DNA of 64,000 nt from Candidatus Omnitrophota bacterium (GCA_043812495.1 JBDRMG010000016.1:2137-66136); one strand, 5' to 3'; shown: positions 9,656 to 46,673, numbered from the stretch's first letter. Notes: generated by a model not told the origin, from the sequence alone. Numbers and translations are program-made.

Positions 9656-9666
9656 CCTTTCCTAAG

Positions 9667-24852: not shown

Positions 24853-25678
24853 CGGAGCCTTCCTCTGCGTAAAAAATCAATTTTGGCCGCCCGGACAGAA
24901 TCACCCTTTGATGTTCAGCTTTATACACGGCCTTTTCAGAATAGCTGGCATTATCTCCCTGGAAAATCTTCACATTTCCGGTACAGATCATTTCTGTAAT
25001 CTTATTGGATTGAGAATCAAAAAAGACTTCCATCTTGTCCGCCAAAAGCCGGCGATCTCCGTCAACAGCCACAACATTATTGTTGAAAATGGCGTTTTGT
25101 TCTTCATAATTGATTTCCAAAGGACCATCGCATGTAATAGTAATTTTTCTTTTCCCTTTGTCCTTCGATTCAACATCAACCGTAACACTAACTTCTTCGT
25201 TGAGTTGAGCTGCGTTTAAACCCGGGTTGGCCTTGGCTCCCTTGCCAACGGCGAGCATGCTCTCTTTTTTGATGACGACTTCGTCGTCCGTGCTGACTAA
25301 GTCCACATCTCGTTCCCAATTCAGCGAATCGGTCACCAGGGTCGCGCCGCTTTCCGTTGTGATAATCACATCGTTTTCAAGAAACATATTTCCGCTTGTC
25401 TTGTTCATGGTTCCGTCTTTAGCCGTTAAATGCATAACATCTTCACCATAGTTATTGGCGACAATATTTTTTATCTTAATGGTCTCTCCCAGAATATCTG
25501 CTGAATCTCCCTTGACATCCCAAGATTTCTGCCCTGTTCCATTGAAGCCGGATAAGGTAAAGCCTTCGAATTGCTGCGGTGTTTCTTCAGCGGCCGCAAG
25601 CCCTGCTGAGCAAAGAATAACGGCCAAAAGGAGGGTAATGCTTTTTAGCATGCGTAACGCTCGATCACTTTCTGCCAT
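24830..25678 (-). CDS. LptA/LptC (OstA-like) periplasmic LPS transport protein
   Basis: Signal peptide followed by OstA-like beta-jellyroll repeats, 282 aa, in an lptC/A-lptB context. Confidence 0.7.
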   Translation of the reverse strand: MAESDRALRMLKSITLLLAVILCSAGLAAAEETPQQFEGFTLSGFNGTGQKSWDVKGDSADILGETIKIKNIVANNYGEDVMHLTAKDGTMNKTSGNMFLENDVIITTESGATLVTDSLNWERDVDLVSTDDEVVIKKESMLAVGKGAKANPGLNAAQLNEEVSVTVDVESKDKGKRKITITCDGPLEINYEEQNAIFNNNVVAVDGDRRLLADKMEVFFDSQSNKITEMICTGNVKIFQGDNASYSEKAVYKAEHQRVILSGRPKLIFYAEEGSDVSFGDE

Positions 25679-28719: not shown

Positions 28720-29745
28720 CTACGATTTGATAGCTGCTAAAAGTTCTTTCTTGGCAACAGGCACAGCCCCTGTCTTAGCGACAACAATGCCGGCCGCATA
28801 ATTCGAAAGATCCGCCGCTTCTTTTTTCGTCGCTCCGGCCGTGAGGCTAAGCGTAAAGACAGAAATCACCGTATCCCCGGCACCTGAAACATCGAAGACT
28901 TCTCGGGCTTTGGTATTGATATGGACCGGTTTCTTGCCTTTTTCAAATAGACGCATGCCAAGCTCGCCCAGAGTAATCAATAGAGAATCCAAATTCAGAT
29001 ACTTCACTAAAGCGCTTCCGGCGCTATCAATATCTTGATCTTTTTCCAGCTTCAGAGCGGAAACGGCCAGGCGTCGTCCGGCATGGTGCGTCATTTTAAT
29101 ATTCTGGATGGCGTTTTCGGTTTCTTTTTTATTGGGCGTAATCGCGGTCACGCCGTTATAATAGCGAAAATGCTCCACCTTGGGATCAACGGTAAAAATT
29201 TTCTTTTTCTGAATCGCTAAGGTGCACGCCTGGGTCACCAAAAGAGGCGTGATTATACCCTTTCCGTAATCAGAAATGATGATAGCATCGCATTTCGGGA
29301 TTTGATCTTTTAAAAATTTGAGAATCTTTTGGCTGAGAAGTCCCTCGTCTTGATCCTTGATTTTTTCCCGGTCAATTCGGACAACCTGTTGATGCTGGGC
29401 GATGATACGCGTTTTCATCGAGGTCGGTATTCTTCTGTCGACAAAAACACCGCGCGCGGAAACCTTGTTTTTCTTAAGCTCGCGCAGAAGGATCTTGCCT
29501 TCGGCGTCCGAGCCGATTCTTCCCGCTAAAATAGCCTCTGCTCCAAGGCTGCTTAGGTTGCTGGCCACATTCGCCGCACCTCCTACCATAAAAGCCGAAC
29601 GGCCTTCTTGGAGCACAACGGGCACAGGGGCTTCGGGAGAAATGCGGGAAACCGTTCCACGGATATACTGATCCAAAATAATATCGCCGATCACAAGGAT
29701 CCGCTTTCCCTTAAACTTGGAAATAAGCTGCGTGTAACGTTCCAT
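28720..29745 (-). CDS. D-beta-D-heptose 7-phosphate kinase (RfaE/HldE domain I, PfkB family)
   Basis: PfkB ribokinase-like fold ending in the DVSGAGDT anion-hole motif, 341 aa. Confidence 0.85.
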   Translation of the reverse strand: MERYTQLISKFKGKRILVIGDIILDQYIRGTVSRISPEAPVPVVLQEGRSAFMVGGAANVASNLSSLGAEAILAGRIGSDAEGKILLRELKKNKVSARGVFVDRRIPTSMKTRIIAQHQQVVRIDREKIKDQDEGLLSQKILKFLKDQIPKCDAIIISDYGKGIITPLLVTQACTLAIQKKKIFTVDPKVEHFRYYNGVTAITPNKKETENAIQNIKMTHHAGRRLAVSALKLEKDQDIDSAGSALVKYLNLDSLLITLGELGMRLFEKGKKPVHINTKAREVFDVSGAGDTVISVFTLSLTAGATKKEAADLSNYAAGIVVAKTGAVPVAKKELLAAIKS

Positions 29746-30006
29746 GGGGACCTTCTTTCTTAGAGAAAAATCGGAATAAAAAGGTTACGGATAACGGCGA
29801 GAATCTTTTTTCTTTTTATTCGAAACAAGCGTTAATTTTAGCATAGTTTAAATTGGTCGTCAACTGCTTCTAACATATACTAATAAAAGAATTTCCGACT
29901 AGATTTATAGGCTAGGAGACGTTGTTTAAAGTATTGAATTTTTCCATTGGGAAGAAGGGATGTTGATTAAAATATTAAAGTTGGCTCCGGAAATTACTTT
30001 AATACT

Positions 30007-30141
30007 TTAATCTTCGTCCCTCAAAAAACCTAATTGCGGGGATTCTGATGTATCTTCCGAAAGACCTAACAAAAGCGGCAGGTTGGCGGGAACGATTTGA
30101 AAAATAACCGGCGCAAAGCCGTCGATTTTGATGGTATGAAT
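30007..30141 (-). pseudogene. Degenerate remnant of a giant-gene 3' end (encodes ...IKIDGFAPVIFQIVPANLPLLLGLSEDTSESPQLGFLRDED*)
   Basis: About 80 percent nucleotide identity over ~113 nt to the last codons of the 2405-aa gene at 31528..31640, with higher identity at the peptide level. An in-frame TGA lies 10 codons upstream and there is no ATG. Confidence 0.7.
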
Positions 30142-30362
30142 CCCCGCGGGCAAGTCCCTGGTTCCATTTTTATTACGTGAGCTTCACTCACGAAAAACCT
30201 TTGGCAACCCACCACGGGTAAACCCGTGGTCTGTCTTTTCGCAATTATGAGCGGATCTATTCTGCGAAGCTGCAACGTGAAAACTTTGCAGCGGAGCAGA
30301 ATCAATGAACCACTCTCAAATATGCCTGGAGATACAAAAATGGTGGCGTATTATTCTTTGCA

Positions 30363-30773
30363 TTATTTCTGAATCACTATGGATTTTATCCAATTCAGAA
30401 ACCTCTCTGCGTGTTTTGATAAATTAACCGCTTCTCTTTGGGTGATTAACCTCTGATCATATTCCACAACGCTCTTCATGGAAACAAGATGCCGTAAATG
30501 GTTCATGTTTTCATCCGCAGCTTTATGTTTTACCAAGCTTGAAAAAAGCTTAAGAATATCATCGTGTTTGGGGCTGATACTTCTTATCCCATGCAAAGCA
30601 ACTAATAAGGCATCTGCGGAAGATATTCCGGCATGGATGGCATTTAAGCCCGCGGCATTCCATTTTCCCCTACCCAGGCTCTCTTGCGCACTTGAGAGAA
30701 ATTCCTCAGCCTTTTTTAGGTAGTTAATATAATCCGACTTGGGTAAATGTGCGGTTCTTATTTTTTTAACCAT
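30363..30773 (-). CDS. HEPN-domain protein (toxin-like component of a HEPN/MNT pair)
   Basis: 136 aa and all-helical, with an Rx4-6H-type motif (RSISPKH). It overlaps the upstream MNT gene by 8 nt. Confidence 0.7.
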   Translation of the reverse strand: MVKKIRTAHLPKSDYINYLKKAEEFLSSAQESLGRGKWNAAGLNAIHAGISSADALLVALHGIRSISPKHDDILKLFSSLVKHKAADENMNHLRHLVSMKSVVEYDQRLITQREAVNLSKHAERFLNWIKSIVIQK

Positions 30774-31392
30774 TGTAAGTGATTAATTCAGCTACGCTTT
30801 TGCCATAAATGACTTTACCCGTTCGGATAATCTCTTTGAGAAAACGGTCCTCTTTTTTTAATTTTCTCTGAAATTCATCTATCCTGAATGATGAGCATGC
30901 CAAGTGATTCCCAAAAAGCACAGTTATTTTCTTTTCCGCCTTGGACAGTTGCCTGGCGAGAAGTGCCTTGTCTGTTGGATAAGGGGCAATAATAGCCATA
31001 TCGATATCGCTGTCTGCGGAAGCATTTCCTTTGGCGAAGCTGCCAAAGAGAATAATGCTCAAGGGCCGTATAGATTTTATTGCCCTTAAAATAATCCTGG
31101 CAATATGTTCAAAGACGTGACTCTCTTTTTCAAAAGCCGGCCGGATAATTTCTTTAACCAAGAAATGCTCCTCGTTCAGCCAGTAAACAAGAGAATTACC
31201 CAGGGAACGCATGTTCACTATGCCGTGGCTGGTTAAATCCTTCAAAGCCGTGTGCGCTTTGACATGGGATATTCCGATATTCTTGGCAATCTCCCGCCCG
31301 TTCATCTGGGCTTGAACATTGATAAGGAAACGAAGTATTTTTACCTTTGAAGTCTGTCCAAAAATATCATCAAGCGGCCTGTTTAACAGCAC
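30766..31392 (-). CDS. Nucleotidyltransferase (MNT-type) with an N-terminal winged-HTH, GTG start
   Basis: Minimal nucleotidyltransferase motif ILFGSFAKGNASADSDIDMAII and an N-terminal HTH (REIAKNIGISHVKAHTALKDL). AAGGAGG lies 6 nt upstream of the GTG. Confidence 0.75.
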   Translation of the reverse strand: MLLNRPLDDIFGQTSKVKILRFLINVQAQMNGREIAKNIGISHVKAHTALKDLTSHGIVNMRSLGNSLVYWLNEEHFLVKEIIRPAFEKESHVFEHIARIILRAIKSIRPLSIILFGSFAKGNASADSDIDMAIIAPYPTDKALLARQLSKAEKKITVLFGNHLACSSFRIDEFQRKLKKEDRFLKEIIRTGKVIYGKSVAELITYNG

Positions 31393-31436
31393 ACTCTGCC
31401 TCCTTTATATGGTAACTTTTATTAACATTCGGTATT

Positions 31437-31467
31437 TATTATTACCATGTAAATTGTCTCTTGTCAA
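31437..31467 (-). promoter_or_regulatory. Sigma70-type promoter for the MNT-HEPN operon (TTGACA, 17 nt, TAATAAT)
   Basis: The minus strand reads TTGACAagagacaatttacatggTAATAAT about 45 nt upstream of the MNT start. Confidence 0.6.
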
Positions 31468-31513
31468 GGTCTTTATTTGAGCTTTTTTCGTGTTTCGAGA
31501 TGCGACCGGTATC

Positions 31514-34500
31514 TTATCGCAAAAGACCCAACTGCGGGGATTCTAATTCGTCTTCTGAAAGGTCTAATAAAAGCGGCAGATTGGTGGGAACGATTTGAAA
31601 AATCACCGGGCTAAAGCCGCCGATTTGGATGGATTGGATAGATTGAGGATCGATTGGTATGCTAAAATCTACTCCCGCGCCTTGAGTTTGGAGTTCTAAT
31701 ATATTTGGATTGAGGTCAATACCGCCGACCTTCTCTGCTGCGATATGGTCTTGCCCTTCAACAATAACTCTATCTAATTGTTCTGCCTGTACGAAATCTT
31801 CCTGCGCTTCGTCAACTGATCCAGAATTCCCTCGGTCAAATAAAGCCTGTCCAGTTGCAAAGAAACGCATAATATTAAGCAACTCATTCGGCATTTCAAT
31901 ATGATTCATTTCAAGAATATGAAAGAACCACAACAATTTTTGTCCAACACTGTTTTTTGATTGCAACACTTGAGTGACCAGTTCGTTCCGGATATCTCTA
32001 TTCAATGTGCCACCGAGCTCTTGAATTATATTTTCCAAAACATCCTTTTGGCTATCGCGGACGGCCACCATTAATTTTCCCAGCAACCGCCGATTATTTT
32101 TGTTAAGTCCAAAAGATGCTCCTGCATCAATCAAAACAATACGAACTCGACCGTTCTCGCCCTTCTGTATCAAAATATTTCCCAAGTGAGGGTCTCCGTG
32201 ATAAAAGCCCTCATAGAAAATTTCCCGTAATAGTTCATTGGCCACAGCCAATTCGACATCCTTCTGATCAACCCCTGACTCCTGCACGCGTGCTTCATTC
32301 GACAATTTAATACCATCAATGTATTCCATAACAATTAGTGAATTGTTAAAGACCTCAATTATCTGCGGAACATAAAATTCATAGTCCCCTCTTACCTCTC
32401 CCAATCGAGTGTCACCAAATAATTTCTTTAAAGAAAACTCCTTAATTCTCTTCAATACGGTTCGCTGAACCCGGGAACCTAATTCGGCCGTATTCTTTGC
32501 CTCCTGCTCAAAATCCAGTTCTTGCCGAAACCCTTCTTCTAGCTGTGAAATGAAATTATCCGGTATAACAATTCCTTCCTCCACAAAAGCCGAACGTAAG
32601 TCATCATCGAAGACATCCTTCAAAAACTTCATGTCGGCCTCAATAGTCTTATCGACTTCGGATCGTTTAACTTTGATAGCCACTATTCTGCCATCGCGCA
32701 TCTTGGCTCGATAAACGCCAGCAATTTTTGCACTGCCCAAAGGTTCTTCAATGCTCTCAAACTGTCCCGTCAAATCAAATTTTTCCAACATATCAAAGAC
32801 CACTCCTTTATCCATCCTGCGAGCACTGTCTTGAACCAGCGACAATTCATCCCGCATAACCGGAGTGACCCACAAAGAACGAGCCAAAACTTGTGCCAGT
32901 TGGCGACCGACTAATCCAAGCGACTCCAGAAACATACGCACTGCACGAGCCTCTTGCCTCTCCGGAGTGATGTTTGGCTGACCAGCTTGCATTTCACCAC
33001 GCTGTAAGGACAAAGTCCAGGCTAACGAAAGAAAAATTTCCTCACGGCGAGATTGGTCAGCTTTCTCAAAAACCTTATCAAAGACTTTTTTTAGAACGCT
33101 CTTATTCGGACCATCTTTGATTAGGAAATCAAACATGCCGTCCAGCAAATTTGACATGGCTGTGGGATCATTAAAAATGCCTTTTTCGCCATATAGAAAC
33201 GGCTCCAGAGCCTCCCGTTGTGACGACTGACCAGCCAAAGGATAATATTTGCTCTGCCTTCGGCCAAAATCTTCTCGCATGCTATCTGCATTAACGTGGA
33301 AATTATATTCGAAATCAATAAGGAAAAACGGCTTCTCGTCTGTGATGCCCATAAGCCAAAGAAGAAGATGCGCTTTCTCAGTTGGGCTGCGATCCTTCAT
33401 CCATGCGCGAAATACATCAGCATGCATTGCCGTTCGCGCCGTTTCTTTAAGATCCAAATCTTTGGTCTTTTTGAACGGATCAAGATAAAGCGCTCTGACC
33501 TGCTCGTATTGCTCACGCGTCTTTGTCAAGAATTGTGCTGTCTCTGAAAGAATATCATCCCTGATTAACGAAGCTTCTGGGAAGAATCTCTGAATTTTCT
33601 GAAGAACATCATCCAACGTTCCAAATTCTTCAGGATGTTCCGTGCGATATTGATCAAAGACGCCTAACGCCAGATTATCCCGCAATTCGCGGTTATGAAC
33701 CATCGCCAGCAGTTTTTCAATCTCATCGACGGTCTTGTCTCGACCCTCAGCCTGAATTGCCTCTTTAATCCATTTGTCCCTTACCAATGATGATTGCGGA
33801 TAATACTTTTCAATAGATTCTCTTTTAGAAGCCAATGATAACTCTGAAAAACCGATGATGTTTCTCATTTCCTCTTCGGCCAAACGGCTAACAAACACAT
33901 ATAATTGAGCAACGGGTCCTCCCGGATTAGAATAAATCATATCATCGTAATCACCACTCTCCTGATTATGCTCTTGGCGAATAGCAGTCTCATCTAATTG
34001 AGGAGCATTTTTGGAGTATCGATCTCTCCAATAGGCCGCCACAGTTGCTTCATTAGACTTTTCCATAATTCCATCATGAACAAAATATGGCGCGATTGCC
34101 GCTATGGCCGATAAAACACCCGCTCTTTCATCTGTCGATAGCCCGGCAAGATGCATCTGCATCCTTTTAATATCAAAAATTGCGTCGTTATGGCCAGTAT
34201 ATCCGGCCTGATTAATAAGCACCCGATTGACGAAAAGCATATAAAGAACAAAATTTTTGAATACTGATGGCGGCATCTCTCGAACTACCACATCAACAGC
34301 CTCCTCGTAATCTGCAGGAAGCAAAGCGATAAAATCAAATAACCGCATAAAATCATCAAAGGCAATTTCCTCTCTCATGAAGCGAACCGCGTTCCTAGGT
34401 CGTTGCTTAGTGGCTTGTTTGGTATAGTCAGCCTCTTCAGAAACCCCCTTGCCTGAAATGTCTCCGGCAAATACACGCCAAACACTACTCCCAAGCCTGA

Positions 34501-37500
34501 CATCATCCTCTTTAAGTCTCACGTCATAACCAAGCTCCACGAACAGTGCCTGCAAATAAACCGGCGCCGTATACTTTCCAAAGGCCTCTTCTTGCTGTTC
34601 CGGTGTTGAATCTTTTTCAGATAATAATTGACCAATCGAATGGCGATTACGCTCCAGTAACTCCTTGATCAAGCCAAATTCATCGTTGTTAACATTTTCG
34701 ATTCTCCGTTCAGGATTAATCTCATTCCAACGATCAAAAATCTTGAGCCGATCCTTGTTAGATAAAGCATTATATCGTTCTGATAAATCTTCTTCATCAT
34801 AAACTGGACGCTCAGGCTCGGCGTTTTTGATAAAGGAAATAATTTGTGGATCAGAAAACATGCTTCCCTTTTTTTCTCTAACACGCAATGCACCGAAAAT
34901 AAAATTTCTCAAATTCTTTCCTTCCGGGATTCCCCCCCCCAGGGCAATAACATAAAAAATTGGTCTTAATTCGCGTCGTGTCCTCTCAATTAAAGGCCTA
35001 AACTCCTTGGGTATATGCTCAAAAAGAACTCTTTCAAAAGCATCACCAGTAAACATTTGACTATCTCCACGTGCCCTTAGCCAAAGATCGCGGAAAATAC
35101 CCAAATCATTATTGATGTGTTCTTCTCTAAATTTCGTGAAAATCTTTTGATGCACAAGAACAAGCTCTTCAGAAGAAACTTTGTTGGCTTTTGCATGCGC
35201 GGCTTCAACAAAAACTTTCAATACATTCTGCATATTCTTAACAATGTTTTTATTCGCCAATAAACTGTCCAAGTATTCTATCCTGCTTCCCAGAAAGACG
35301 ATGCCTTGGCCTTCCTTAAATAGAGTTTGTATATCCAACTTTATAAACTCGGCTCTTAATGAATTCCACCCATCATCCCGACGTAAAAGCCAGTCCATAA
35401 GTTCCTTCTTTGCGTCAGGAGAAGTATTGCGAGCAAGTTTGTATAATTCCTCGGCAAGTCCGTCCGCTTTTAATGCATAATTGACCTTGGTCCCTAAAAT
35501 TTCATAAACACGAATCAGGAGCCTGATGTCTTCTGATTCTAACTGACTTCGATAAACAGTGGATGAAGTCAAGACTGATGCCATTTGACTTAACGGTTCA
35601 GCAAATAAATAACCTTTGAAGTACCCTTGTGAATCCTGCATATCTATCAAGTCAGTAAGAAAATGGCGGGCCTGTTCTAATGTCAGTTTGCCTTGCTGGG
35701 CATCCTTAACCATTCTTATATACAATCCATACAGGAAGCCGCTGGCATAGTGCTTAAATCGATCACTCGCACGCCTTGGCCCTTTCATAGGAAGGACATA
35801 AGAATCGAGCCTTGAAAGAACTCTTTTAGCTTGTTCATGTCGATCATTCATCTTTTGTTTCTCCACATCAATTGACATAGAGAAAATACCCGGAACGCCT
35901 AGTTCATAAATTTGAACGATCGTTTCAGGGGATAATAACTGACCAAGGCCAAGAAAAGAATTCATGTCTGAGCTTAAATCTTCTCTCTTTAGTCCAAGCA
36001 TCACATAGATTTCATCCCTCATATATTTAAATAAAACTTGTTTGGCTTCATCCTCACCGGAAAATTCTTTTATCCGTTGTTCAAATACCGTTTGAGCTAG
36101 AAGATAAAATTGCTTTTCAGTATCAGGTAAAACCTCATAACCAATCAACATCGCAAAATGCAATTCTTCAATTGTCTTTGCCTCATTCAATAAGGATATG
36201 AGATTCGATGTGTTTGTAACATTGATAACTCTTTCTTGAAATTCTCTAAATCGCGTTCTTTGTTGAGAAAGGGGAACAGATTTTAATGCCGTAGGCGGGA
36301 CGTCTTGATTCTGCCAGTGATATGTCAGGATCTGGTGCTGCAACTTTCTTAAACGTTCTTCTATTTGGGGGTGAGTGCCCCAAAAAGCGTCACGTTCGCC
36401 GCGTGCCGTCAGCCAATGCTCTATGCCAGCAAGAATATGTGGCGCCGACCTAACTGAAAAACCAGCTCTGTCCATCAACCACAAAGCTAATAAGTCACTC
36501 TGATATTCCTTGCCTCGATCTTCCGCATGACGATCTATCAATCTTTTCTTTTCATCAAACCGACCTTCATCAATTTCGCGACGGTTCTGCATAATATGCA
36601 AAATTTCATGAGACAAAACCCAAGCTAACGCATCTTGCGTTACATCAAGATTATTAGTGCTCGCATATTCCGTGAGCATACGAATAAGCCCCAAATTAAC
36701 TACGATAGTATTATAATAATTCACGACATAGGCATTAGGATCAGTCGTATCCGCGAGGAAAAATTGAAATTCTTGTGGGTTCAGTCCCTGAGCAATTAAT
36801 AATCGGTCTATAACACTACGTACCTCATCATATAACGTCTGAAACTGCTCGAAATCTTCCTTCCCAGGAGCAATGAAGCGATCAACGACATCCTTTTGTT
36901 TCAGAAACTTTTCTTTACGATCAACGTCTCGGTTATATTCGCTCTGAGATTTTAAAGGTGTCCCCGGAATAGTTTTTCCAACCTTTTTCCTGTCCGATAC
37001 AGGAACTCTTCGGATGCTAGGACTGATTATATCCCTTCTCGCAACCTCATATTCTTGCCGGGCGGTTTCTTGATCAATCTGCTGATCGCCGGCCCGTAAT
37101 CTCTGGCGTGCGTTATTGTGGGCGATAATCCAATGCTTCCCTGCTTTTCTTTCCTGAACTTCCTCTCGCTCAAGGTCAAGCTGCTGATCAATTTCACTTT
37201 CAAAGACAATGATTTTCCAAATCTCGTCTGTGCCTTTAAAGTTAATCGCCTGAACGCCACCCTTCGGATCCATGACCCATCTTTGAATGGCTTTTCCTAA
37301 ATCCGTTTCCTTAACCGCATCTGAAATGACAAAAACGCGGACATCGTTTTCTTCATCCATTGTCTCAGCAATTAATCCTTGTTGTTCGAGATGGCCTAAA
37401 ATAAACTCTAGAATTTGATCTTCAGTGGCATCATTTGCAACTTCGGGAACATTCTCACTCCTAGCCAGAATATTTATTAACCTACGAAAGCGGTCTAGAT

Positions 37501-38731
37501 TTTTGACAGGATCTAAAACAGTCGAAACTGTTCTTAGCGATCCGGCTGTTGTTTCATTTGCTTTGGCTAAAGTTTCAACTCCACTCTTTGATTCAACTGA
37601 AAGAGCTTCATCAATTGCCTTTCCTCGGAACTCCATCCCGCCAGAAAAATATTTCCTGGGTATAATCTGTCGAGTTGTTGGATCATAATCTTCTTTGATG
37701 TAGTTATAAACGCCTACTTTAAACGCTTCGACATACTGTTGATAAATTTTTTCTCTAACCTTCTTGTCCTCAATGTCAACCCCACTGACTTTATTTTCAC
37801 CAACATAAACTTTTCCCAAAAGACTTTCTTTAAGATTACGCTTAAACCATGTGGCCAGAATCATGGAATGATATATCTGACGCAATAATGAAAAGTTTTC
37901 TCCGTTATTAACCTCTTTCTCAATCTCCGGGATAATGACTTCTCTCACAATTTCAGAAGAAATATTGCTGAGTTGTTCAACATCCTCTTCATCTAACTTA
38001 TCCGTGCCAATTGTTTCTTTGTTTAGATTTTCCTTGAGAGCAAGATAATCCCCTTCCAGCATGACTTTTAAATGGCTTTCAATAATAAAAGCCGTATCTC
38101 CGGTCTCGTACACAAGAGCTTTTTCCGGAACAACCCAGACTTTATTGAAAGTATTTATTGGTATTTCTGCCGTCCCATAACGCTCGCGCGCCTTCTCATA
38201 GACTCGATTCCAAAACTGTTCCCCTAATTCGTCTTCAGGATAAATCAACGAAGCCGTTAATTGCTTGAGGATATAGTCCTGGCCCAACAAATCCCTGCCC
38301 ATTTCAGTAATACCTAATTGATCAGGGATAATTCTATCCTGTTCATAAGGGGATAGATTGACCCATAATTCGTCCTCTGGCACCGTTAGGGAAGCCAGGA
38401 AATATTTGATAAGTTTGGAAGATTCTGTCTGTAAAGTTTCATCCTCGAATTGAGCGCTGCCTGTATCTATGATGAAATCAAATCGAAGAGGATTATTCAC
38501 AAAGATCTTGATACCTTTTATAACGGCAGGGGTAAAATTCGGGGTTGGCATAACCATAGCTCCGACCGCAGGAAGATTCAACAGACCCTGGGCATGAGCA
38601 GGCGGTGGCGGGGTGATGAGGCTTGAGAGAAACGCCAGAATAACAAAAGACACAGCGCATCTGTAAGGGGCCCTGGAGGTAGCGTTTGATTTTCGGCTTT
38701 GAGAAAGCATCCCTTTAATATGAATATTCAT
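31514..38731 (-). CDS. Giant 2405-aa secreted multidomain protein with an M48-like zinc-metalloprotease segment and a C-terminal ABC1/UbiB-type atypical kinase domain
   Basis: A single uninterrupted ORF. The N-terminal signal peptide is hydrophobic (AVSFVILAFLSSLI), then PPPPAHA/QG. Around aa 690-720, DPNAYVVNYYNTIVVNLGLIRML...ALAWVLSHEILHIMQ follows the M48 NAF...GLL...HEXXH pattern. The C-terminal ~300 aa match ABC1 motifs: LGSAKIAGVYRAKMRDGRIVAIKVKRSEV, FYHGDPHLGNILI and LIDAGASFGL. Confidence 0.85.
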   Translation of the reverse strand: MNIHIKGMLSQSRKSNATSRAPYRCAVSFVILAFLSSLITPPPPAHAQGLLNLPAVGAMVMPTPNFTPAVIKGIKIFVNNPLRFDFIIDTGSAQFEDETLQTESSKLIKYFLASLTVPEDELWVNLSPYEQDRIIPDQLGITEMGRDLLGQDYILKQLTASLIYPEDELGEQFWNRVYEKARERYGTAEIPINTFNKVWVVPEKALVYETGDTAFIIESHLKVMLEGDYLALKENLNKETIGTDKLDEEDVEQLSNISSEIVREVIIPEIEKEVNNGENFSLLRQIYHSMILATWFKRNLKESLLGKVYVGENKVSGVDIEDKKVREKIYQQYVEAFKVGVYNYIKEDYDPTTRQIIPRKYFSGGMEFRGKAIDEALSVESKSGVETLAKANETTAGSLRTVSTVLDPVKNLDRFRRLINILARSENVPEVANDATEDQILEFILGHLEQQGLIAETMDEENDVRVFVISDAVKETDLGKAIQRWVMDPKGGVQAINFKGTDEIWKIIVFESEIDQQLDLEREEVQERKAGKHWIIAHNNARQRLRAGDQQIDQETARQEYEVARRDIISPSIRRVPVSDRKKVGKTIPGTPLKSQSEYNRDVDRKEKFLKQKDVVDRFIAPGKEDFEQFQTLYDEVRSVIDRLLIAQGLNPQEFQFFLADTTDPNAYVVNYYNTIVVNLGLIRMLTEYASTNNLDVTQDALAWVLSHEILHIMQNRREIDEGRFDEKKRLIDRHAEDRGKEYQSDLLALWLMDRAGFSVRSAPHILAGIEHWLTARGERDAFWGTHPQIEERLRKLQHQILTYHWQNQDVPPTALKSVPLSQQRTRFREFQERVINVTNTSNLISLLNEAKTIEELHFAMLIGYEVLPDTEKQFYLLAQTVFEQRIKEFSGEDEAKQVLFKYMRDEIYVMLGLKREDLSSDMNSFLGLGQLLSPETIVQIYELGVPGIFSMSIDVEKQKMNDRHEQAKRVLSRLDSYVLPMKGPRRASDRFKHYASGFLYGLYIRMVKDAQQGKLTLEQARHFLTDLIDMQDSQGYFKGYLFAEPLSQMASVLTSSTVYRSQLESEDIRLLIRVYEILGTKVNYALKADGLAEELYKLARNTSPDAKKELMDWLLRRDDGWNSLRAEFIKLDIQTLFKEGQGIVFLGSRIEYLDSLLANKNIVKNMQNVLKVFVEAAHAKANKVSSEELVLVHQKIFTKFREEHINNDLGIFRDLWLRARGDSQMFTGDAFERVLFEHIPKEFRPLIERTRRELRPIFYVIALGGGIPEGKNLRNFIFGALRVREKKGSMFSDPQIISFIKNAEPERPVYDEEDLSERYNALSNKDRLKIFDRWNEINPERRIENVNNDEFGLIKELLERNRHSIGQLLSEKDSTPEQQEEAFGKYTAPVYLQALFVELGYDVRLKEDDVRLGSSVWRVFAGDISGKGVSEEADYTKQATKQRPRNAVRFMREEIAFDDFMRLFDFIALLPADYEEAVDVVVREMPPSVFKNFVLYMLFVNRVLINQAGYTGHNDAIFDIKRMQMHLAGLSTDERAGVLSAIAAIAPYFVHDGIMEKSNEATVAAYWRDRYSKNAPQLDETAIRQEHNQESGDYDDMIYSNPGGPVAQLYVFVSRLAEEEMRNIIGFSELSLASKRESIEKYYPQSSLVRDKWIKEAIQAEGRDKTVDEIEKLLAMVHNRELRDNLALGVFDQYRTEHPEEFGTLDDVLQKIQRFFPEASLIRDDILSETAQFLTKTREQYEQVRALYLDPFKKTKDLDLKETARTAMHADVFRAWMKDRSPTEKAHLLLWLMGITDEKPFFLIDFEYNFHVNADSMREDFGRRQSKYYPLAGQSSQREALEPFLYGEKGIFNDPTAMSNLLDGMFDFLIKDGPNKSVLKKVFDKVFEKADQSRREEIFLSLAWTLSLQRGEMQAGQPNITPERQEARAVRMFLESLGLVGRQLAQVLARSLWVTPVMRDELSLVQDSARRMDKGVVFDMLEKFDLTGQFESIEEPLGSAKIAGVYRAKMRDGRIVAIKVKRSEVDKTIEADMKFLKDVFDDDLRSAFVEEGIVIPDNFISQLEEGFRQELDFEQEAKNTAELGSRVQRTVLKRIKEFSLKKLFGDTRLGEVRGDYEFYVPQIIEVFNNSLIVMEYIDGIKLSNEARVQESGVDQKDVELAVANELLREIFYEGFYHGDPHLGNILIQKGENGRVRIVLIDAGASFGLNKNNRRLLGKLMVAVRDSQKDVLENIIQELGGTLNRDIRNELVTQVLQSKNSVGQKLLWFFHILEMNHIEMPNELLNIMRFFATGQALFDRGNSGSVDEAQEDFVQAEQLDRVIVEGQDHIAAEKVGGIDLNPNILELQTQGAGVDFSIPIDPQSIQSIQIGGFSPVIFQIVPTNLPLLLDLSEDELESPQLGLLR
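31528..31640. repeat. Direct repeat copy 2: the 3' end of the giant gene, duplicated in diverged form at 30029..30141
   Basis: The two segments were aligned by eye at ~80 percent identity. The pair brackets the HEPN/MNT cassette. Confidence 0.7.
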
Positions 38732-39007
38732 AATATTTTTAATAAGTAAATTTGTTAAGAAAAGTATACCATGATATTGATCGAGAAAGGGTTCAATGGG
38801 GCGTTTTTGAGAAAACGCTTTCTTATTTTTTATCGACGGAAAATAGCAGAATTATTAATAATGGACCGAAGAAGGGGATATTTATTGCGGATTTCTTGGG
38901 ATAAGGGCATCCCAAATGGGCTGGTTAGGATTTACACTTGTCCGCATTGTGGGCAGCTCAGTTTTCTGGTTTTCCTATAAGGAAATATTAAATTGTATTT
39001 ACTCTAT

Positions 39008-39089
39008 CCCCGCCCGCCATTGATTCGGTGGCGGGCGGGGTCAATTCGCACTGATCAGTTACGTTCCCTACAGTCACGTAACTGATGTG
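39008..39089 (-). terminator. Tandem GC-rich hairpins downstream of the DUF4143 ATPase gene
   Basis: CCCCGCCCGCCA/ttgattcgg/TGGCGGGCGGGG, then ATCAGTTACGT/tccctacagtc/ACGTAACTGAT. Confidence 0.5.
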
Positions 39090-39105
39090 CTCATTGATTT
39101 GTTTT

Positions 39106-40269
39106 TTATATAACCTTATCTGCCCATAGGCGGTTTAAGAAATTTTCCCAGGGCCATATGTCCATCTTGTTGTGAAGTCTTTTTTCTTTTTCGTTGCAAA
39201 CCACGATACTTTTTGAGGGTGAAAAAATTTCCCTAAAGGCATTTAACCCACGCAAATCTTTTCTTCCGATGCGGCTAGAGCCTTTGACTTCAACGGCCGC
39301 TTCTCCTTTTCCAAGCACAAAATCGACTTCCATGCCTGTCTTGGTTCTCCAGAAATGAATGTCAAAGTTCTTATTGCTGTAGGAGCGATAGGCAACGATT
39401 TCCATCAAGATAAAGTGTTCAAAGGCCCTTCCAAAGTCGCTGCCCCGGGTCTGGGCCACATGCCTTTTTGTCAAATACCCCGCGACACCCACATCAAACA
39501 GATAGTATTTCGGGGTCTTTGTGATCACCTGCCGCGATTGTCTTTTGCGAAAGGGCTCAAGGCGGATAGCCAGCAATGTATCGATAAGGATTTGATAATA
39601 TTCTTTGACTGTCTTGGAATCAACGGCGCATTCGCGGGCAATGTTGGAATAATTTGTCAGTTCTCCGTGGGAGTAAGCAAAAGCATCAAAAAATCTTGAA
39701 AACGCCGGTATATTGCGCGTCAAACCCTCGGCAAAAATTTCTTCACGCAAATAATCCTGAACATAGGCCTTTAGCGATCTTTGCGCCTCTTCTTTATTCT
39801 GCAAATAATGAATCGGAATCATCCCCTGATTTAATGCACGCAAAAGGTCGACTTTCATTAATTCCCGGCTCACAAAGGGAAACAATTCGTACCGCCAGGC
39901 CCTGCCGCCCAAGAGGTTGGCATGGCCTCTTTTTAACTTTCGCGCACTTGAACCGCAGAGGATGAACCTCAATCCTTTATTTTCTATCAACCAATGTATT
40001 TCATCCAGAACCTGCGGAATCTTCTGGACTTCATCAATAATGATGGGTTTCTTGAAAAAGGAATCCTCTTGGGCAAGAATACGCTCACGCAATAGCGCCG
40101 GATTCTTGGATATTTCCATAAATAAATCCGTTTTCAGAAAATCATAAACAAGGCTGTCTGGAAACCTCTCTTTTAAGAAAGTGGTTTTGCCGGTTTTCCG
40201 GGCGCCCCAAAGAAACGCCGATTGCCCCCGGGAAAGCTTCAAATCCAATATTCTTGGTATCCTTCTCAT
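39106..40269 (-). CDS. AAA-superfamily ATPase of the DUF4143/COG1373 type
   Basis: Walker A GARKTGKTT, Walker B IIIDEV and a C-terminal DUF4143-like region (WRTKTGMEVDFVL), 387 aa. Confidence 0.7.
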   Translation of the reverse strand: MRRIPRILDLKLSRGQSAFLWGARKTGKTTFLKERFPDSLVYDFLKTDLFMEISKNPALLRERILAQEDSFFKKPIIIDEVQKIPQVLDEIHWLIENKGLRFILCGSSARKLKRGHANLLGGRAWRYELFPFVSRELMKVDLLRALNQGMIPIHYLQNKEEAQRSLKAYVQDYLREEIFAEGLTRNIPAFSRFFDAFAYSHGELTNYSNIARECAVDSKTVKEYYQILIDTLLAIRLEPFRKRQSRQVITKTPKYYLFDVGVAGYLTKRHVAQTRGSDFGRAFEHFILMEIVAYRSYSNKNFDIHFWRTKTGMEVDFVLGKGEAAVEVKGSSRIGRKDLRGLNAFREIFSPSKSIVVCNEKEKRLHNKMDIWPWENFLNRLWADKVI

Positions 40270-40435
40270 TCTGAATGTCCTCCGAAATAGTCTAACTATT
40301 TAGGAGTATACTCCATATTGGTATTTTTGTCAAATTTTGTTTTTTGGGGGTTTGGGGACATGCTTTGGCTAGCCTTTAACCTTCGGGAAAAATCGGCCCA
40401 ACGATTCCAGTAAGGATGAACATCAGAATCAGGAT

Positions 40436-41503
40436 TTAAGCCTCTGATTTGGATCTTTCAGGAAGGGAAATTAAGGATTCCACGGCCCGGAAGACCTCTC
40501 GCGCTTCAATTGCCTGAAGACACGAGAGGCAGGATTCCTCATCGCTTTGCGCGCATTCTTCGCACCCCTGGTCACGGTGGATCGCAAAAGCCTTTTGGCC
40601 TAAAGGACGCCAGCGCGTATGACTGATACCACCGCTTCTATGGCCAAATATGGAAATCACAGGGGTGCCTACGGCGCTCGCAATATGCACAGGACCCGAA
40701 TCATTGGAAATGAGCAAGCAGCTTTGACGTAAAAGACAAACCAGTTGACCCACGGTCGTTAGGGCTACGGCATCCATAAAGGGCCACCGGCATGAGGACT
40801 TGATCGCATCAGCGATTTCCTGGGTCTCCAACCCTCCTATGAGCATCATGCGGACAGAATATTTTTCTCGGATAAGACCAATCAATTCCGCGAACTTTTC
40901 AGGCGGCCAGCGTTTGGTTTCGTCGCTGCCACCTGGATGGATGGCGATAAAAAGATCCTGGCCTTTAATATTATGCTCAACGAGAAATTGCTTTACCCAC
41001 ATTTCGTTTCGTGTTTTGATGGGAACATGGAGATTCATATAATTGGTGGCCTTAATGCCCAGCGCCTCGAGTAAATCAAGACAATACTGCGCTTCGTGCT
41101 TTGTCCCTAAAGGACGGTCGTCTTGAATCTTTTTCGTCAACAAAAAACCGAATTTGTTGTTGTGATATCCGACTCTTTCCGGAATCCCGGCCAAGAAGCA
41201 AATCAAATTGGTCCTTTTTTTCGTGTGATAGACAATCGCACAATCAAATTTTTTCTTTCTTAAGGCAAAAATAAATTTCCAGAAACGGATGGGTCCTTTG
41301 TCTTTTTCCTGGCGATCATACACAATCACTTCATCAAGATAAGGATTTCCGTCAACCAGTTCCACCGTCGCGGGTGTGACCATAAGTGAAATTTTTGACT
41401 TTGGATAGGCTTGGCGAAGATACGCCAAGGCCGGTGTTGTGAGGATCACATCCCCGATTCTGTCGGTGCGTACAACGAGGATATTTTTCAAAGGCTTAAT
41501 CAT
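40436..41503 (-). CDS. Glycosyltransferase family 9 (LPS heptosyltransferase)
   Basis: N-terminus ILVVRTDRIGDVILTTPAL and a C-terminal GT9 motif (ISNDSGPVHIASAVGTP), 355 aa. Confidence 0.85.
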   Translation of the reverse strand: MIKPLKNILVVRTDRIGDVILTTPALAYLRQAYPKSKISLMVTPATVELVDGNPYLDEVIVYDRQEKDKGPIRFWKFIFALRKKKFDCAIVYHTKKRTNLICFLAGIPERVGYHNNKFGFLLTKKIQDDRPLGTKHEAQYCLDLLEALGIKATNYMNLHVPIKTRNEMWVKQFLVEHNIKGQDLFIAIHPGGSDETKRWPPEKFAELIGLIREKYSVRMMLIGGLETQEIADAIKSSCRWPFMDAVALTTVGQLVCLLRQSCLLISNDSGPVHIASAVGTPVISIFGHRSGGISHTRWRPLGQKAFAIHRDQGCEECAQSDEESCLSCLQAIEAREVFRAVESLISLPERSKSEA

Positions 41504-43520: not shown

Positions 43521-44574
43521 CCATCTTTTCCGCGGAGAATTCTTTCTGAATAAAAAGCCGCGCTGATTCTCCTATTTTCTTGGCCCTGATGGGGTCTTTC
43601 AATAGAGCGATGACGGCCCGGCCAAGCTCCTTGGGATCTTTGCTTGAAACCAAAACACCTGTTTCATTGTCCTGGATGAGGCTCGGAATACCGCCCACTC
43701 TTGAGGCCACAACGGGTAAACCCACCGCTTGCGCCTCCATCACCGAAAGGCCTAAACCTTCTTGGATTGACGGCATAACAAAAATATCAAAAATTGGTAA
43801 GATCCAGGCCGTTTTATTGACGATAGGATAAAAAGAAATGTTCTGCGCCAAGCCCAGCTCTTTGGTCATTTGCTTTAATAAGTCTTCTCTTTTCCCTTCA
43901 CCAATAATCATCAAGCGTGCCTGAGGAATTTCTTGCACAATATGCTTCATGGCCGAAATCAATATGTCATGGCCCTTGACATCGGATAACCTGGCGATGA
44001 TTCCAATCACGGGGCCTTGATCCAGATGAAATTCTTTCCGCCTATCTTCTTTCGTCTTTTCATCAATGAGGCGAAACTCATCTAGATCAATTCCGTTGGG
44101 AATAAGGTCAATTTTGTCTTTCGGAACGTGAAAATCCTTTTCAAGATGACGTCGCACGGCCTCACTGATGGCAATAGTCCGGTTGCCCCAGCAGGGAAAT
44201 ATTTTTCTGGATAAACGGGGTTTAAAAAAACCGTGGCATGTGCAGACACAGGGTTTTTGAGACATTTTCTGAAGAAAAAAGCCTATAACTTGCGTCACGC
44301 GCGTATGCGCATGAATAATGTCAATCTTTTCGTTTCGTATAAGCTCTCTGAGCTTTTTTAAAGACAGATAAAGTCTTGGATTTAATTCGGATTTTGTGCG
44401 AAGCGCGAATGTCTGATGCCTAGCGCCCATCGCTATCAAATCATTGACTCGGTCACCGCCGCTCGAGACAACAATCACGCGATGCCCTCTCGATAAAAGA
44501 CTTTTTGTGAGCGTGAGAATATAACTCGCAATTCCGCCTGTATGGCAATGAGTCGACAGAATAAGAATGTTCAT
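43471..44574 (-). CDS. Glycosyltransferase family 4
   Basis: GT-B fold with a C-terminal EGLGLSVMEAQAVGLPVVAS motif, 367 aa. Confidence 0.85.
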   Translation of the reverse strand: MNILILSTHCHTGGIASYILTLTKSLLSRGHRVIVVSSGGDRVNDLIAMGARHQTFALRTKSELNPRLYLSLKKLRELIRNEKIDIIHAHTRVTQVIGFFLQKMSQKPCVCTCHGFFKPRLSRKIFPCWGNRTIAISEAVRRHLEKDFHVPKDKIDLIPNGIDLDEFRLIDEKTKEDRRKEFHLDQGPVIGIIARLSDVKGHDILISAMKHIVQEIPQARLMIIGEGKREDLLKQMTKELGLAQNISFYPIVNKTAWILPIFDIFVMPSIQEGLGLSVMEAQAVGLPVVASRVGGIPSLIQDNETGVLVSSKDPKELGRAVIALLKDPIRAKKIGESARLFIQKEFSAEKMVEKTIACYQKAMGEHE

Positions 44575-46673
44575 CTTTTCATCTTTACTAATTTCAAAAC
44601 TTCATCAGCCACTTCTTCGGGCTTAATTTCTTCCATGCACAAACGGCTGGGCATCCGGCACATCGGACTGTAGCAAGGGCTGCATTTGATTTCCTTCTTA
44701 AAAATAATAGGATTCTCGCAGGGCGGCGCATGCCTTAAGGGGTTTGTCGGCCCAAATAGGGCAATAAAAGGAGTGTGCATGGCTGCGGCGATATGCATGG
44801 GCGCCGAATCCGGCGTAATGAATACCTTGCATTTTCTAATGAGGACCGCCAACTGTAAAATATCTGTTTTCCCGACCAGGATCGCAGGCTTGGACTTTGT
44901 TCTGTTGAGCAATTCCCTTGCTCTTTCTTTGTCCTGTTCAACGCCGGTAACAACAATGCGCAAATTCTTTTGAGAAAGAATATCGCATAACCGGGCCACA
45001 TGATCCAGAGGCCAGTTTTTGGATATCCATTTATCGGAAGCCGCCAGATGAATACCGATTATATTTTTTTCATGCCCCATCCATTCGGAATCCAAAAGAT
45101 TCCTAACGAACTCTTCGTCTTCGATCGATGGCCATAGTTCCAAAGAAAGGTTGCCCTCATATTCAATGCCCAACATCTTCAGCACCTGAAATTGATGCTC
45201 GACGGGCGGCAAAAACGGATGTTCGTTCTTGATCCGCCGCGAAAGAAGAAAACTTCCCTTGCCGTTATCGTATCCGTAACTGTTTCTCGCAAAACTCAAG
45301 AATGCCAGCATATGACTCCTGCGATTATTCTGCAAATCTATCACCTTGTCGAACCTGAATCTGCGCAATTGACGGGAGAAGCGAAACAGCCTCCAGGCGC
45401 CCCGGTCATTTTCTTGGGGATCGATCACGATGAATCCGTTGATATAAGGACAGCGCTTGAGGACAGGGCTGGCTTCTTTTCCGACCAGGCAATAGATCAG
45501 GGCCTGCGGATATCTTCGACGCAATGCTCTCAAGGAAGGAATGACCAAAACAACGTCGCCGATCGAGCTGATTTTAATCACCAAAATATTCAAAGAATCG
45601 AGCAATTCTTTATACACCTCCAGAGTCTTACTGGCCATATGCTCAAGCGTATATTTTAATTCAATTTTCTTGCGGGCCTCCGTGACTAAGCTTTGAGCCA
45701 ACCGCCTGTCTTTCAAGACTCTCATCACGGCTTGGGCCATGGCATCCGTGTCTTTCGGTAACACCAAAAGGCCTGTTTGTTCATCATCAATAATTTCAAT
45801 CACGCCACCCACTTTCGTTGCCACCACAGGAACGCCGGCGGCCTGGGCCTCAACCACAACACGGCCAAAGGATTCCGGTTCTATGCTTGAGAGGACCAGA
45901 ACATCAATACGCGAAAGAAGCGCGGGGACGTCTTTTCGATTTCCCAAAAATTCAACGTAATCATGAAGCCCCAATCGTTTGATGAGAATCTGGAGCTCCT
46001 GCTTATAGGATTGTTTGCTCGCGGGCGCATCTCCGATCATCCAAATCTTGACATAGGGCATCGAGCGAACGACCTTGGCCATCGCTTTCAGGAAATACGC
46101 ATGTCCTTTAAGCGGCGTCATGCGGCCGATAATGGCGACCACTCTGTCTGCCTTCCCTGTTTTCTCTTCATGCGGTTTACTAAACCGCTTGAGGTCAACA
46201 CTGCGGGGAATCAGGCGGATGCTTTCTTGGCGGACACCAAAATCATCGATCATGTGCCGGCCGATCACTTCGCTCGGGACAATCACAAGCTTGGATGAGC
46301 CCATGACGCGGCTAAAGAGATGCTTTCCGTAATACCCATGGCACGTCGTGATAAAGGCCGTATCGGTCTTATGACAGGCAAAAAAAGCGATCCATGCCGG
46401 AACGCGGCTGCGCGCATGAACAATATCTACCTTTTCATCCATAATGATCTTTTCTAATTTCTTGATGGAGGAGATGATAGAAAATAAATTTTTCCGATGT
46501 GCAGGAAGTTTGTAATGTTTGACGCCGGCCGCTTCGATATCTGCTACAAGGTCTCCGCCGCTGGAAACAACAACCGCTTCATGACCGTGTTGAATTAAGT
46601 ATTTGGCAAAATCCACCGTGCCGGTTTCGACGCCGCCGACTTTGAGCTCGGGAAGTATTTGCAGAACTTTCAT
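44571..46673 (-). CDS. Bifunctional GT4-GT9 glycosyltransferase fusion
   Basis: The N-terminal ~350 aa are GT4 (ESFGRVVVEAQAAGVPVVAT). The C-terminal ~350 aa are a GT9 heptosyltransferase (ILVIKISSIGDVVLVIPSL ... TPDSAPMHIAAAMHTP). Total 700 aa. Confidence 0.8.
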   Translation of the reverse strand: MKVLQILPELKVGGVETGTVDFAKYLIQHGHEAVVVSSGGDLVADIEAAGVKHYKLPAHRKNLFSIISSIKKLEKIIMDEKVDIVHARSRVPAWIAFFACHKTDTAFITTCHGYYGKHLFSRVMGSSKLVIVPSEVIGRHMIDDFGVRQESIRLIPRSVDLKRFSKPHEEKTGKADRVVAIIGRMTPLKGHAYFLKAMAKVVRSMPYVKIWMIGDAPASKQSYKQELQILIKRLGLHDYVEFLGNRKDVPALLSRIDVLVLSSIEPESFGRVVVEAQAAGVPVVATKVGGVIEIIDDEQTGLLVLPKDTDAMAQAVMRVLKDRRLAQSLVTEARKKIELKYTLEHMASKTLEVYKELLDSLNILVIKISSIGDVVLVIPSLRALRRRYPQALIYCLVGKEASPVLKRCPYINGFIVIDPQENDRGAWRLFRFSRQLRRFRFDKVIDLQNNRRSHMLAFLSFARNSYGYDNGKGSFLLSRRIKNEHPFLPPVEHQFQVLKMLGIEYEGNLSLELWPSIEDEEFVRNLLDSEWMGHEKNIIGIHLAASDKWISKNWPLDHVARLCDILSQKNLRIVVTGVEQDKERARELLNRTKSKPAILVGKTDILQLAVLIRKCKVFITPDSAPMHIAAAMHTPFIALFGPTNPLRHAPPCENPIIFKKEIKCSPCYSPMCRMPSRLCMEEIKPEEVADEVLKLVKMKR

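Follow-up and report, generated by a model that had tools for sequence, protein, structure and literature searches.

We analysed a 64,000-nt stretch of DNA from Candidatus Omnitrophota bacterium (GCA_043812495.1 JBDRMG010000016.1:2137-66136), called the window below; coordinates are positions in the window unless a comparison locus is named. Within a large lipopolysaccharide (LPS) supercluster, about 10.6 kb of DNA was found inserted between the gene for D-glycero-beta-D-manno-heptose-7-phosphate kinase (the kinase gene) and GT9a, the first of three GT9 heptosyltransferase genes. The insert carries a gene for an ATPase with a DUF4143 domain, a giant gene with protease and kinase domains, and a pair of genes for a minimal nucleotidyltransferase (MNT) and a HEPN-domain protein. 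The data point, with good confidence, to a patchwork accessory island of three independent modules. The island lies in a permissive gap that runs from the GT9a stop codon to the kinase promoter, and it was probably built in two or more steps, with the MNT-HEPN cassette most likely entering last, by a single crossover. A preliminary description made from the sequence alone had listed these genes together with a gene-fragment scar and about 1 kb of hairpin-rich DNA, and all of them were found about where it had placed them. Every long open reading frame (ORF) of the window is on the minus strand, as are the genes, promoters, spacers and gene fragment located below.

Insertion at a conserved junction of the LPS supercluster

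Synteny was compared across loci around homologues of the kinase, taken from one genome per species and from metagenomes, and the window proteins were mapped onto each locus. The 33 Omnitrophota loci that included sequence upstream of the kinase gene were used as the informative set. In all 33, the nearest upstream gene of the kinase was GT9a (35-57% identity), in line with the preliminary description, which expected the kinase and GT9 genes to be contiguous. The two genes were at most 193 bp apart in 28 of the 33 loci, and the closest relatives had gaps of 35-36 bp. These relatives were all Candidatus Omnitrophota metagenome-assembled genomes, and the kinase orthologues, in the same synteny, were 61-70% identical. 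Where the loci were long enough, the gene order waaA-lpxK-lpxL-like-GT4GT9-GT4-GT9c-GT9b-GT9a-kinase-kdsB-kdsA-kdsD-kdsC-lptCA-lptB-tig-clpP was intact. Homologues of the giant, ATPase, MNT and HEPN genes were found in none of the 33 related LPS loci, so that the synteny check proposed with the preliminary description found no relative with the insert genes at this junction.

The limits of the insert were set by the native genes on either side, the kinase gene (28720-29745; 346.7 bits in TIGR02198, over its cut-off of 345) on the left and GT9a (40436-41503; Pfam Glyco_transf_9) on the right. The kinase gene has a native promoter at 29835-29863 (TTGACG, 17-nt spacer, TG-TAAAAT; promoter scan 10/12, extended -10), and the block GTTGACG...TAAACT.TG.TA.AAT was invariant in six aligned sequences, those of the window and five relatives. 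Because this conserved promoter ends at 29863, the inserted DNA was placed at about 29864-40435, between the kinase promoter and the GT9a stop codon. The insert therefore sits between two transcription units, not inside an operon, and neither unit is visibly broken. The earlier view that the LPS block is split thus holds for the conserved gene order, which is interrupted; it does not hold for an operon, since a separate kinase promoter is present and is conserved across the alignment with five relatives. This indicates that a tightly conserved Omnitrophota LPS supercluster tolerates accessory DNA at one operon boundary.

Five loci, from other Omnitrophota lineages, carried other genes at the GT9a/kinase junction, which makes the junction a recurrent site of gene-content variation. 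Three of these (L041, 8216-10000; L077; L089, 8232-10000) held a 118-aa gene and a 390-400-aa gene, L079 held a 309-aa gene (1449-2457), and L009 held 589 bp (9412-10000) including a reading frame of the 118-aa type. In L005, about 1.3 kb of extra DNA (5516-6861) occurred elsewhere in the same LPS cluster, between GT4 and GT9c.

Sequence composition was compared with that of 46 flanking genes of the window. At 0.386, the GC3 of the giant gene was lower than that of any of the 46 flanking genes (mean 0.492, sd 0.036, minimum 0.422). The HEPN gene had a GC3 of 0.409, again against 0.492 +/- 0.036 in the flanks, and the MNT gene was the worst fit of all genes to native synonymous codon usage. The ATPase gene was indistinguishable from the flanks (GC3 0.497). 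Tetranucleotide distance from the flank profile, calculated in 5-kb windows, peaked in the insert at 0.015-0.018, compared with no more than 0.0128 elsewhere. The codon-usage comparison suggested earlier thus picked out the giant, HEPN and MNT genes as atypical and left the ATPase gene as native-like. Since the ATPase gene is native-like and the other modules are atypical, these data suggest modules with different histories; the module-wise composition fits donors inside the same phylum and separate histories.

The ATPase module

The module next to GT9a is one gene (39106-40269) for a 387-aa AAA+ ATPase fused to a DUF4143 domain of the PD-(D/E)xK type. Both Pfam domains scored over their cut-offs (DUF4143, E = 1.8e-32; AAA_14, E = 9e-20), and the protein matched PADLOC PDC-S01 over its full length (E = 6.4e-54 and 2.5e-50). 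The motifs, read from the sequence, were intact: Walker A (GARKTGKT), Walker B (IIIDEV) and D...EVK (EVDFV...VEVK). PDC-S01, an ATPase fused to a PD-(D/E)xK domain, was the fourth most common defence candidate in prokaryotes in a 2026 survey, and experimental confirmation is awaited for most such candidates, PDC-S01 included (PMC12988326). DUF4143 is also mentioned in a survey of the PD-(D/E)XK phosphodiesterase superfamily (PMC3424549). The gene would therefore represent a single-gene candidate defence module of the PDC-S01 type, a predicted role only. It resembles PDC-S01 in its full-length match, its Walker A/B and D...ExK motifs and its layout as one gene with its own promoter. It differs in that the Omnitrophota version is unusually abundant and conserved, and the antiviral function of PDC-S01 is itself only a candidate one.

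The promoter and leader of the ATPase gene (40305-40336; TTGACA, 17-nt spacer, TATACT; promoter scan 11/12) were invariant in four aligned loci, those of the window, L139, L142 and L143 (~7935-8000 in the latter three). DNA similarity to homologous ATPase loci ran only from ~40336, about 65 bp before the start codon, to the stop codon. Thousands of homologues were present in the database; the best 120 listed were 72-78% identical, and those among them with a named source were all from Omnitrophota. In the three longer contexts examined, the ATPase was a solo gene wedged amid unrelated housekeeping operons. The module is thus very common in Omnitrophota, usually as a solo gene between housekeeping operons. 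In phage records only seven distant matches were found. Plasmids gave 302 distant matches, all below 40% identity; the family is widespread on plasmids, and these matches are uninformative on the origin of this copy.

Most of the best 120 homologues were on short contigs of 1-5 kb, a pattern that a multi-copy gene, or one with strain-variable flanks, would give; no mobility gene was attached. In L142 (7221-17164), the island around a close homologue also held two AbiE-type toxin-antitoxin pairs, a Y1 transposase gene and the beginning of a 3,560-aa gene.

Between the ATPase and giant genes, the spacer at 38732-39105 contains two tandem strong hairpins, at about 39009-39041 and 39052-39088. Folding energies were expressed as z-scores against shuffled sequence, and three stretches of the insert folded far better than their shuffles. 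The ATPase-giant spacer was the most extreme of these (-55.3 kcal/mol, z = -9.2), with no shuffle as stable. The tandem terminator hairpins ascribed to the ATPase in the preliminary description are thus real structures by this measure, and they probably terminate the ATPase transcript. An ATG-started ORF of 69 aa on the plus strand (38771-38980) lies within the same spacer and may be spurious.

The giant protease-kinase gene

The giant gene (31514-38731) encodes 2405 aa with Peptidase_M48 (46.9 bits, cut-off 20.3) and ABC1 (142 bits, cut-off 22.9) domains. From the N-terminus, the protein consists of a signal-peptide-like start, an N-domain (residues ~45-375), a second shared module (~400-570), the M48 domain, about 1,150 residues without a database match, an ABC1/UbiB-type kinase domain (1988-2229) and a C-tail (~2336-2392). 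A basic stretch and a hydrophobic core at the N-terminus are followed by AHA|QG. This start resembles a Sec signal peptide, and the protein is probably exported. An NCBI protein from an Omnitrophota contig of 132,652 bp was identical to it. The M48 site (HEILH at 708-712, EYQSD downstream) and the ABC1 kinase core (VAIK, HGDPHLGN, IDAG) were both intact.

Scores against the UbiB equivalog models were far below the cut-offs (TIGR01982, 141.9 bits against 487.55; NF003404, 98.6 against 667), and the only matches in a sequence search of the PDB were COQ8/ABC1 kinases. By its predicted domains, the giant is an ABC1-family domain protein and not the UbiB of the ubiquinone pathway. It shares domain matches and intact motifs with UbiB/ABC1/COQ8 kinases and with M48 proteases of the HtpX, Ste24 and BepA types. 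Unlike these, it fuses both activities' domains in 2405 aa, begins with a signal-peptide-like segment and includes about 1,500 residues of unassigned sequence.

Giant orthologues of 71-75% identity were found in other neighbourhoods, without the DUF4143 ATPase or the MNT-HEPN pair, and DNA similarity between the window and the orthologues was limited to the giant coding sequence (38548-31574). One orthologue (P0002) had an HTH_17 gene, a ParE toxin-antitoxin pair, NikR and V-type ATPase genes downstream, and another (P0004) had radical-SAM and TIR-domain genes upstream. A third (P0005; L138, 7564-12736) abutted a tyrosine integrase, a DUF234/ATPase_2 gene and a TrwC relaxase-helicase, a neighbourhood that looks like an integrative mobilisable element. 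An orthologue of 39% identity (P0007) lay between an oxidoreductase gene and dus. In all four contigs with orthologues of 71-75% identity (L057, L058, L059, L138), the giant gene was less than 1 kb from a contig end, which to us suggests that the flanks vary among strains.

We also asked whether the giant gene has a conserved home locus. In L059 (607-3910; giant 72% identical) and L150 (4753-7875; giant 39% identical), it stood beside the same BolA/ABC-transporter/pyridine-nucleotide oxidoreductase cluster, in which the ABC and oxidoreductase proteins of the two loci were 70-82% identical and BolA 52%. This site may be the more usual home of the giant gene; the window is without this neighbourhood, and a conserved home was not adopted as an explanation.

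The MNT-HEPN cassette

The MNT gene (30766-31392) comes first and encodes a 208-aa winged-helix and MNT protein, the putative antitoxin and autoregulator (Pfam Polbeta, NTP_transf_2 and HTH). The HEPN gene (30363-30773) follows with an 8-bp overlap and encodes a 136-aa putative toxin (Pfam PF05168, E = 1.3e-11). In homologous cassettes (L145-L149), HEPN was always directly after MNT. The MNT protein matched PADLOC PDC-M05A (E = 3.9e-20) and its catalytic motif, read from the sequence, was present (GSx10DxD, LFGSFAKGNASADSDIDMAI). Its NCBIfam MntA_antitoxin score was 41.7 bits, under the cut-off of 60, and the HEPN sequence contained no clean Rx4-6H motif, only RH and Rx7H arrangements. For these two reasons the pair was not filed as MntA/HepT, yet it would work like a type VII toxin-antitoxin system, with a putative defence or addiction role. 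In the survey cited above, PDC-M05 is a nucleotidyltransferase with a HEPN protein, typical of toxin-antitoxin modules and with its antiviral role unconfirmed (PMC12988326). The cassette is like type VII systems and PDC-M05 in gene order, overlap, GSx10DxD motif, own promoter and the PDC-M05A match. It is unlike MntA/HepT in the N-terminal winged helix of its MNT protein, in a HEPN protein of family PF05168 without a clear Rx4-6H, and in its sub-threshold MntA score.

The promoter assigned to the pair in the preliminary description was recovered as a promoter-like site at 31410-31467 (TTGACA, 18-nt spacer, AATAAT; promoter scan 11/12). Each of the three modules, the giant included, has a promoter-like site of its own. 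The site of the pair includes a 39-nt element (31410-31448) that was 97% identical in L145 and L146, though the genes there were only ~75% identical. The element is probably an operator to which the MNT protein would bind through its winged helix. The cassette, consisting of the promoter and two genes, was kept in other islands at 69-76% protein identity, and DNA similarity spanned 31481-30375. Its settings were varied: a restriction-modification/ParE/Fic island in L145, a position ahead of pyrimidine-biosynthesis genes and after a divergent N-domain gene in L147, and a site beside a serine recombinase in L148.

Taken across Omnitrophota, each module recurred at ~70-78% identity without the other two, and the shared DNA ended at the module edges. 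Omnitrophota accessory DNA can thus consist of small promoter-plus-gene cassettes without recognisable mobility genes. In the window, PDC-S01 and PDC-M05, both very common as candidate defence families, can be seen in a natural setting.

Repeats within the insert and the probable order of assembly

An orphan fragment at 30019-30150 is a 44-codon copy of the C-terminal tail of the giant. It was 32/44 identical (73%) to giant residues 2362-2405 by tblastn, and 94/113 identical (83%) to the 3' end of the giant gene by blastn. The fragment has no start codon and an in-frame stop upstream. The gene-fragment scar of the preliminary description is thus real and can be identified as a copy of the family C-tail described below. 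With 31520-31639, the fragment forms a 120-nt direct repeat (D1, 82%, spacing 1498) that brackets the MNT-HEPN cassette. Both 44-codon copies share the lineage-specific ending LSED..ESPQLG.LR, and the orthologues are without it. A 79-aa ORF (30066-30305) was rejected as the scar; it is in another frame than the fragment and has no family matches.

The spacer just downstream of the orphan fragment (29864-30018) contains a long A+T-rich hairpin (-26 kcal/mol, z = -3.5), whose arms, 29956-29981 and 29996-30021, form a 26-nt inverted repeat (I1, 85% complementary). This hairpin is probably the terminator of the original 3' end of the giant gene. Downstream of the HEPN gene, a second hairpin-rich non-coding stretch (30151-30362) also folded well (-53.1 kcal/mol, z = -4.0). 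Non-coding DNA of the insert totals ~1.15 kb. No Rfam family was found at E <=0.1 in 29000-41000, and a PHROGs search returned nothing informative. Except for two conserved promoters, no non-coding piece had a second copy in the rest of the window or among 149 loci (1.87 Mb). An origin of the hairpins from REP-like or miniature-transposon elements was dropped because the pieces were unique in these sequences.

The two diverged 44-codon repeats flanking the cassette suggest single-crossover integration. In this scheme, the giant gene would have come in at the GT9a/kinase junction, or moved there, and brought along its terminator hairpin. The ATPase cassette lies upstream with its own promoter and terminators and would have a history different from that of the giant. 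The MNT-HEPN cassette would most likely have come last: an incoming circular DNA with the cassette and a diverged copy of the giant 3' end would have joined by one crossover at that end. Such an event would leave the cassette bracketed just as observed.

Several observations weigh against this interpretation. The nearest relatives compared have only 61-70% kinase identity and none is of the same species. No Pfam integrase or transposase domains were found among the annotated insert genes, and no tRNA gene lies in or beside the insert; indeed there is no tRNA or tmRNA gene within the window. Comparison of the two edges revealed no shared direct repeat of at least 8 nt and no inverted repeat of at least 9 nt; the island has neither a target duplication nor terminal repeats. 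The shift in composition is moderate, and for the ATPase gene it is nil. An identity of 83% over 113 nt makes a poor substrate for homologous recombination, which leaves the crossover weakly grounded beside other possible routes. Some neighbourhoods of the module homologues, considered in the next section, also run counter to full independence.

As a genomic island the insert is ordinary. In genomic or 'defence' islands, defence, toxin-antitoxin and mobile genes cluster between conserved genes and vary among strains. The insert resembles such islands in its absence from relatives at a conserved junction, its atypical composition, its candidate defence and toxin-antitoxin cargo, and the variability of the junction elsewhere. 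It is unlike them in having neither an integrase or transposase nor a tRNA target or flanking direct repeats, and in that 7.2 of its 10.6 kb is one gene for a probably exported protein. The preliminary assignment of the region to accessory cargo, not LPS genes, agrees with the synteny in 33 relatives, with the atypical composition and with the fact that two modules match candidate families for defence or toxin-antitoxin functions.

Alternative explanations

The ATPase, giant and MNT-HEPN genes might form one multi-gene system with, for example, the ATPase as sensor, the giant as executor and the toxin-antitoxin pair as regulator. The four genes are adjacent and co-oriented, and two comparison loci hint at company between these gene classes: in L142 the ATPase homologue shares an island with AbiE toxin-antitoxin genes, with the 3,560-aa gene ~6 kb downstream, and in L147 the cassette follows a divergent N-domain gene. 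These contexts count against our interpretation of separate modules to the extent that a loose association among the three gene classes is possible. Neither the DUF4143 ATPase nor the MNT-HEPN pair was found in any of the four other giant-orthologue contexts. There was no large neighbour in two of three ATPase contexts and in one of three longer MNT-HEPN contexts examined. Within the window a promoter-like site belongs to each gene unit, the ATPase gene is set apart from the giant gene by strong hairpins, DNA similarity stops at the module edges, and composition differs among modules. The independent distributions largely refute a single system, which we regard as very unlikely; the suggestion in the preliminary description that the ATPase with the giant, or the whole set, could be a functional unit did not survive the finding of the modules apart.

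A functional reason for the location was also weighed. BepA is an M48 protease that acts on LptD assembly, and the giant could be an envelope or LPS accessory factor that combines a BepA-like periplasmic M48 protease with a kinase like WaaP and WaaY, which act on the LPS core. Its signal-peptide-like N-terminus, its intact M48 motif and its position amid lpt, kds, waa and lpx genes would suit such a role. The sole similarity to an LPS enzyme was a weak WaaY match over the kinase fold (E = 0.0043), and at 17.2 bits this is under the cut-off of 20.3. Moreover, giant orthologues occurred outside LPS clusters (at the BolA cluster in L059/L150, beside integrase and relaxase genes, and beside toxin-antitoxin genes), the gene was in 0/33 related LPS loci, and the same N-domain and C-tail are carried by hundreds of unrelated cargos. 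An LPS function is therefore very unlikely. It is also very unlikely that the arrangement is ancestral and was lost elsewhere, or that the contig was misassembled from unrelated DNA. The comparison includes no same-species strains, the source is a metagenome-assembled contig, and the position of giant orthologues less than 1 kb from contig ends in L057, L058, L059 and L138 indicates that such regions assemble poorly. Ancestry would nonetheless need many independent precise deletions, each restoring the same GT9a-promoter-kinase junction even in the closest relatives with their 35-36 bp gaps. A misassembly would imply two false joins, with the contig coming back to the same locus in an unchanged orientation, and the kinase promoter and GT9a are intact at the insert edges.

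The N-domain/C-tail protein family

Under our preferred interpretation of a stepwise, modular island, its most unusual element is the pairing of the phylum-specific N-domain with the C-tail of the giant, which marks a large protein family. The N-domain (37607-38596, ~330 aa) follows a signal-peptidase-like x-A-Q site, and the C-tail (31517-31726, ~60 aa) has the pattern GGIDLNP...GF.PVI..I.P..NLPLLLG. The first ~375 and last ~60 residues of the giant were common to a very large set of Omnitrophota proteins (55-74% identity) with unrelated middles. These middles included histidine-kinase ATPase and receiver domains, SNF2 helicases, Ser/Thr kinase and phosphatase domains, and WD40, TPR and HEAT repeats. 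They also included phosphoglycerate kinase, glucose-6-phosphate isomerase, phosphoglucomutase, UDP-glucose pyrophosphorylase and malate synthase.

Searched exhaustively, the N-domain had matches in 8,028 cluster representatives at E <=1e-3, and in 6,309 at 1e-30. The best 150 matches listed were in proteins of 420-5,312 aa, with the domain at or near the N-terminus. Among 222 retrieved members (set P0002-P0342), the C-tail was at the end in 184, and x-A-Q stood just before the N-domain in 192; members without the C-tail were mostly short and probably truncated at contig ends. Neither the N-domain nor the C-tail had a Pfam or NCBIfam match, and a structure model of mediocre quality gave no fold match. 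The family was not found described in Omnitrophota papers on giant proteins, which is not proof that it is undescribed. The wider value of the island lies in pointing to this family, with its more than 8,000 cluster representatives and no Pfam or NCBIfam model.

The giant could be one cargo of a phylum-wide export or sorting system, for which no description was found and in which a signal peptide, N-domain and C-tail would direct thousands of proteins to the cell surface, an extracellular structure or host or prey cells, with the tail-coding DNA serving also as a recombination handle for cassette insertion and gene relocation. We consider this possible, if doubtful. Among the cargo are enzymes that are normally cytoplasmic, such as phosphoglycerate kinase, glucose-6-phosphate isomerase and malate synthase, as well as SNF2-type helicases and protein kinases. 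The CTD of type IX secretion and PEP-CTERM/exosortase provide C-terminal sorting tags on Sec-exported proteins, and the family is similar, by analogy only, in joining a signal peptide and a short conserved C-terminal domain to functionally unrelated proteins. Unlike these systems, it has an additional ~330-aa N-domain and cytoplasmic-type cargo enzymes, and is known here without associated machinery. If the modules were an export or targeting signal, this would bear on cell-cell interaction of ultra-small, possibly host-dependent bacteria.

Genes flanking the island

The LPS supercluster on both sides was identified from matches of the Pfam and NCBIfam type. On the kinase side it comprises clpP, tig, lptB, an LptC/LptA-like gene, kdsC, kdsD, kdsA, kdsB and the kinase gene. 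On the GT9 side it comprises the three GT9 heptosyltransferase genes from 40436, GT4, a GT4-GT9 fusion, a long LpxL-like gene, lpxK and waaA, with xerC, topA and dprA beyond waaA. The kinase gene encodes the RfaE domain I kinase only, not a bifunctional HldE, and the adenylyltransferase half of the heptose pathway must have its gene elsewhere. Three further proteins of the supercluster had unusual architectures that were kept in relatives. A 282-aa protein (24830-25678) matched both LptC and LptA, a 700-aa protein (44571-46673) was the GT4-GT9 fusion, and a 658-aa LpxL-like acyltransferase (46670-48646) carried ~360 extra C-terminal residues without a family match.

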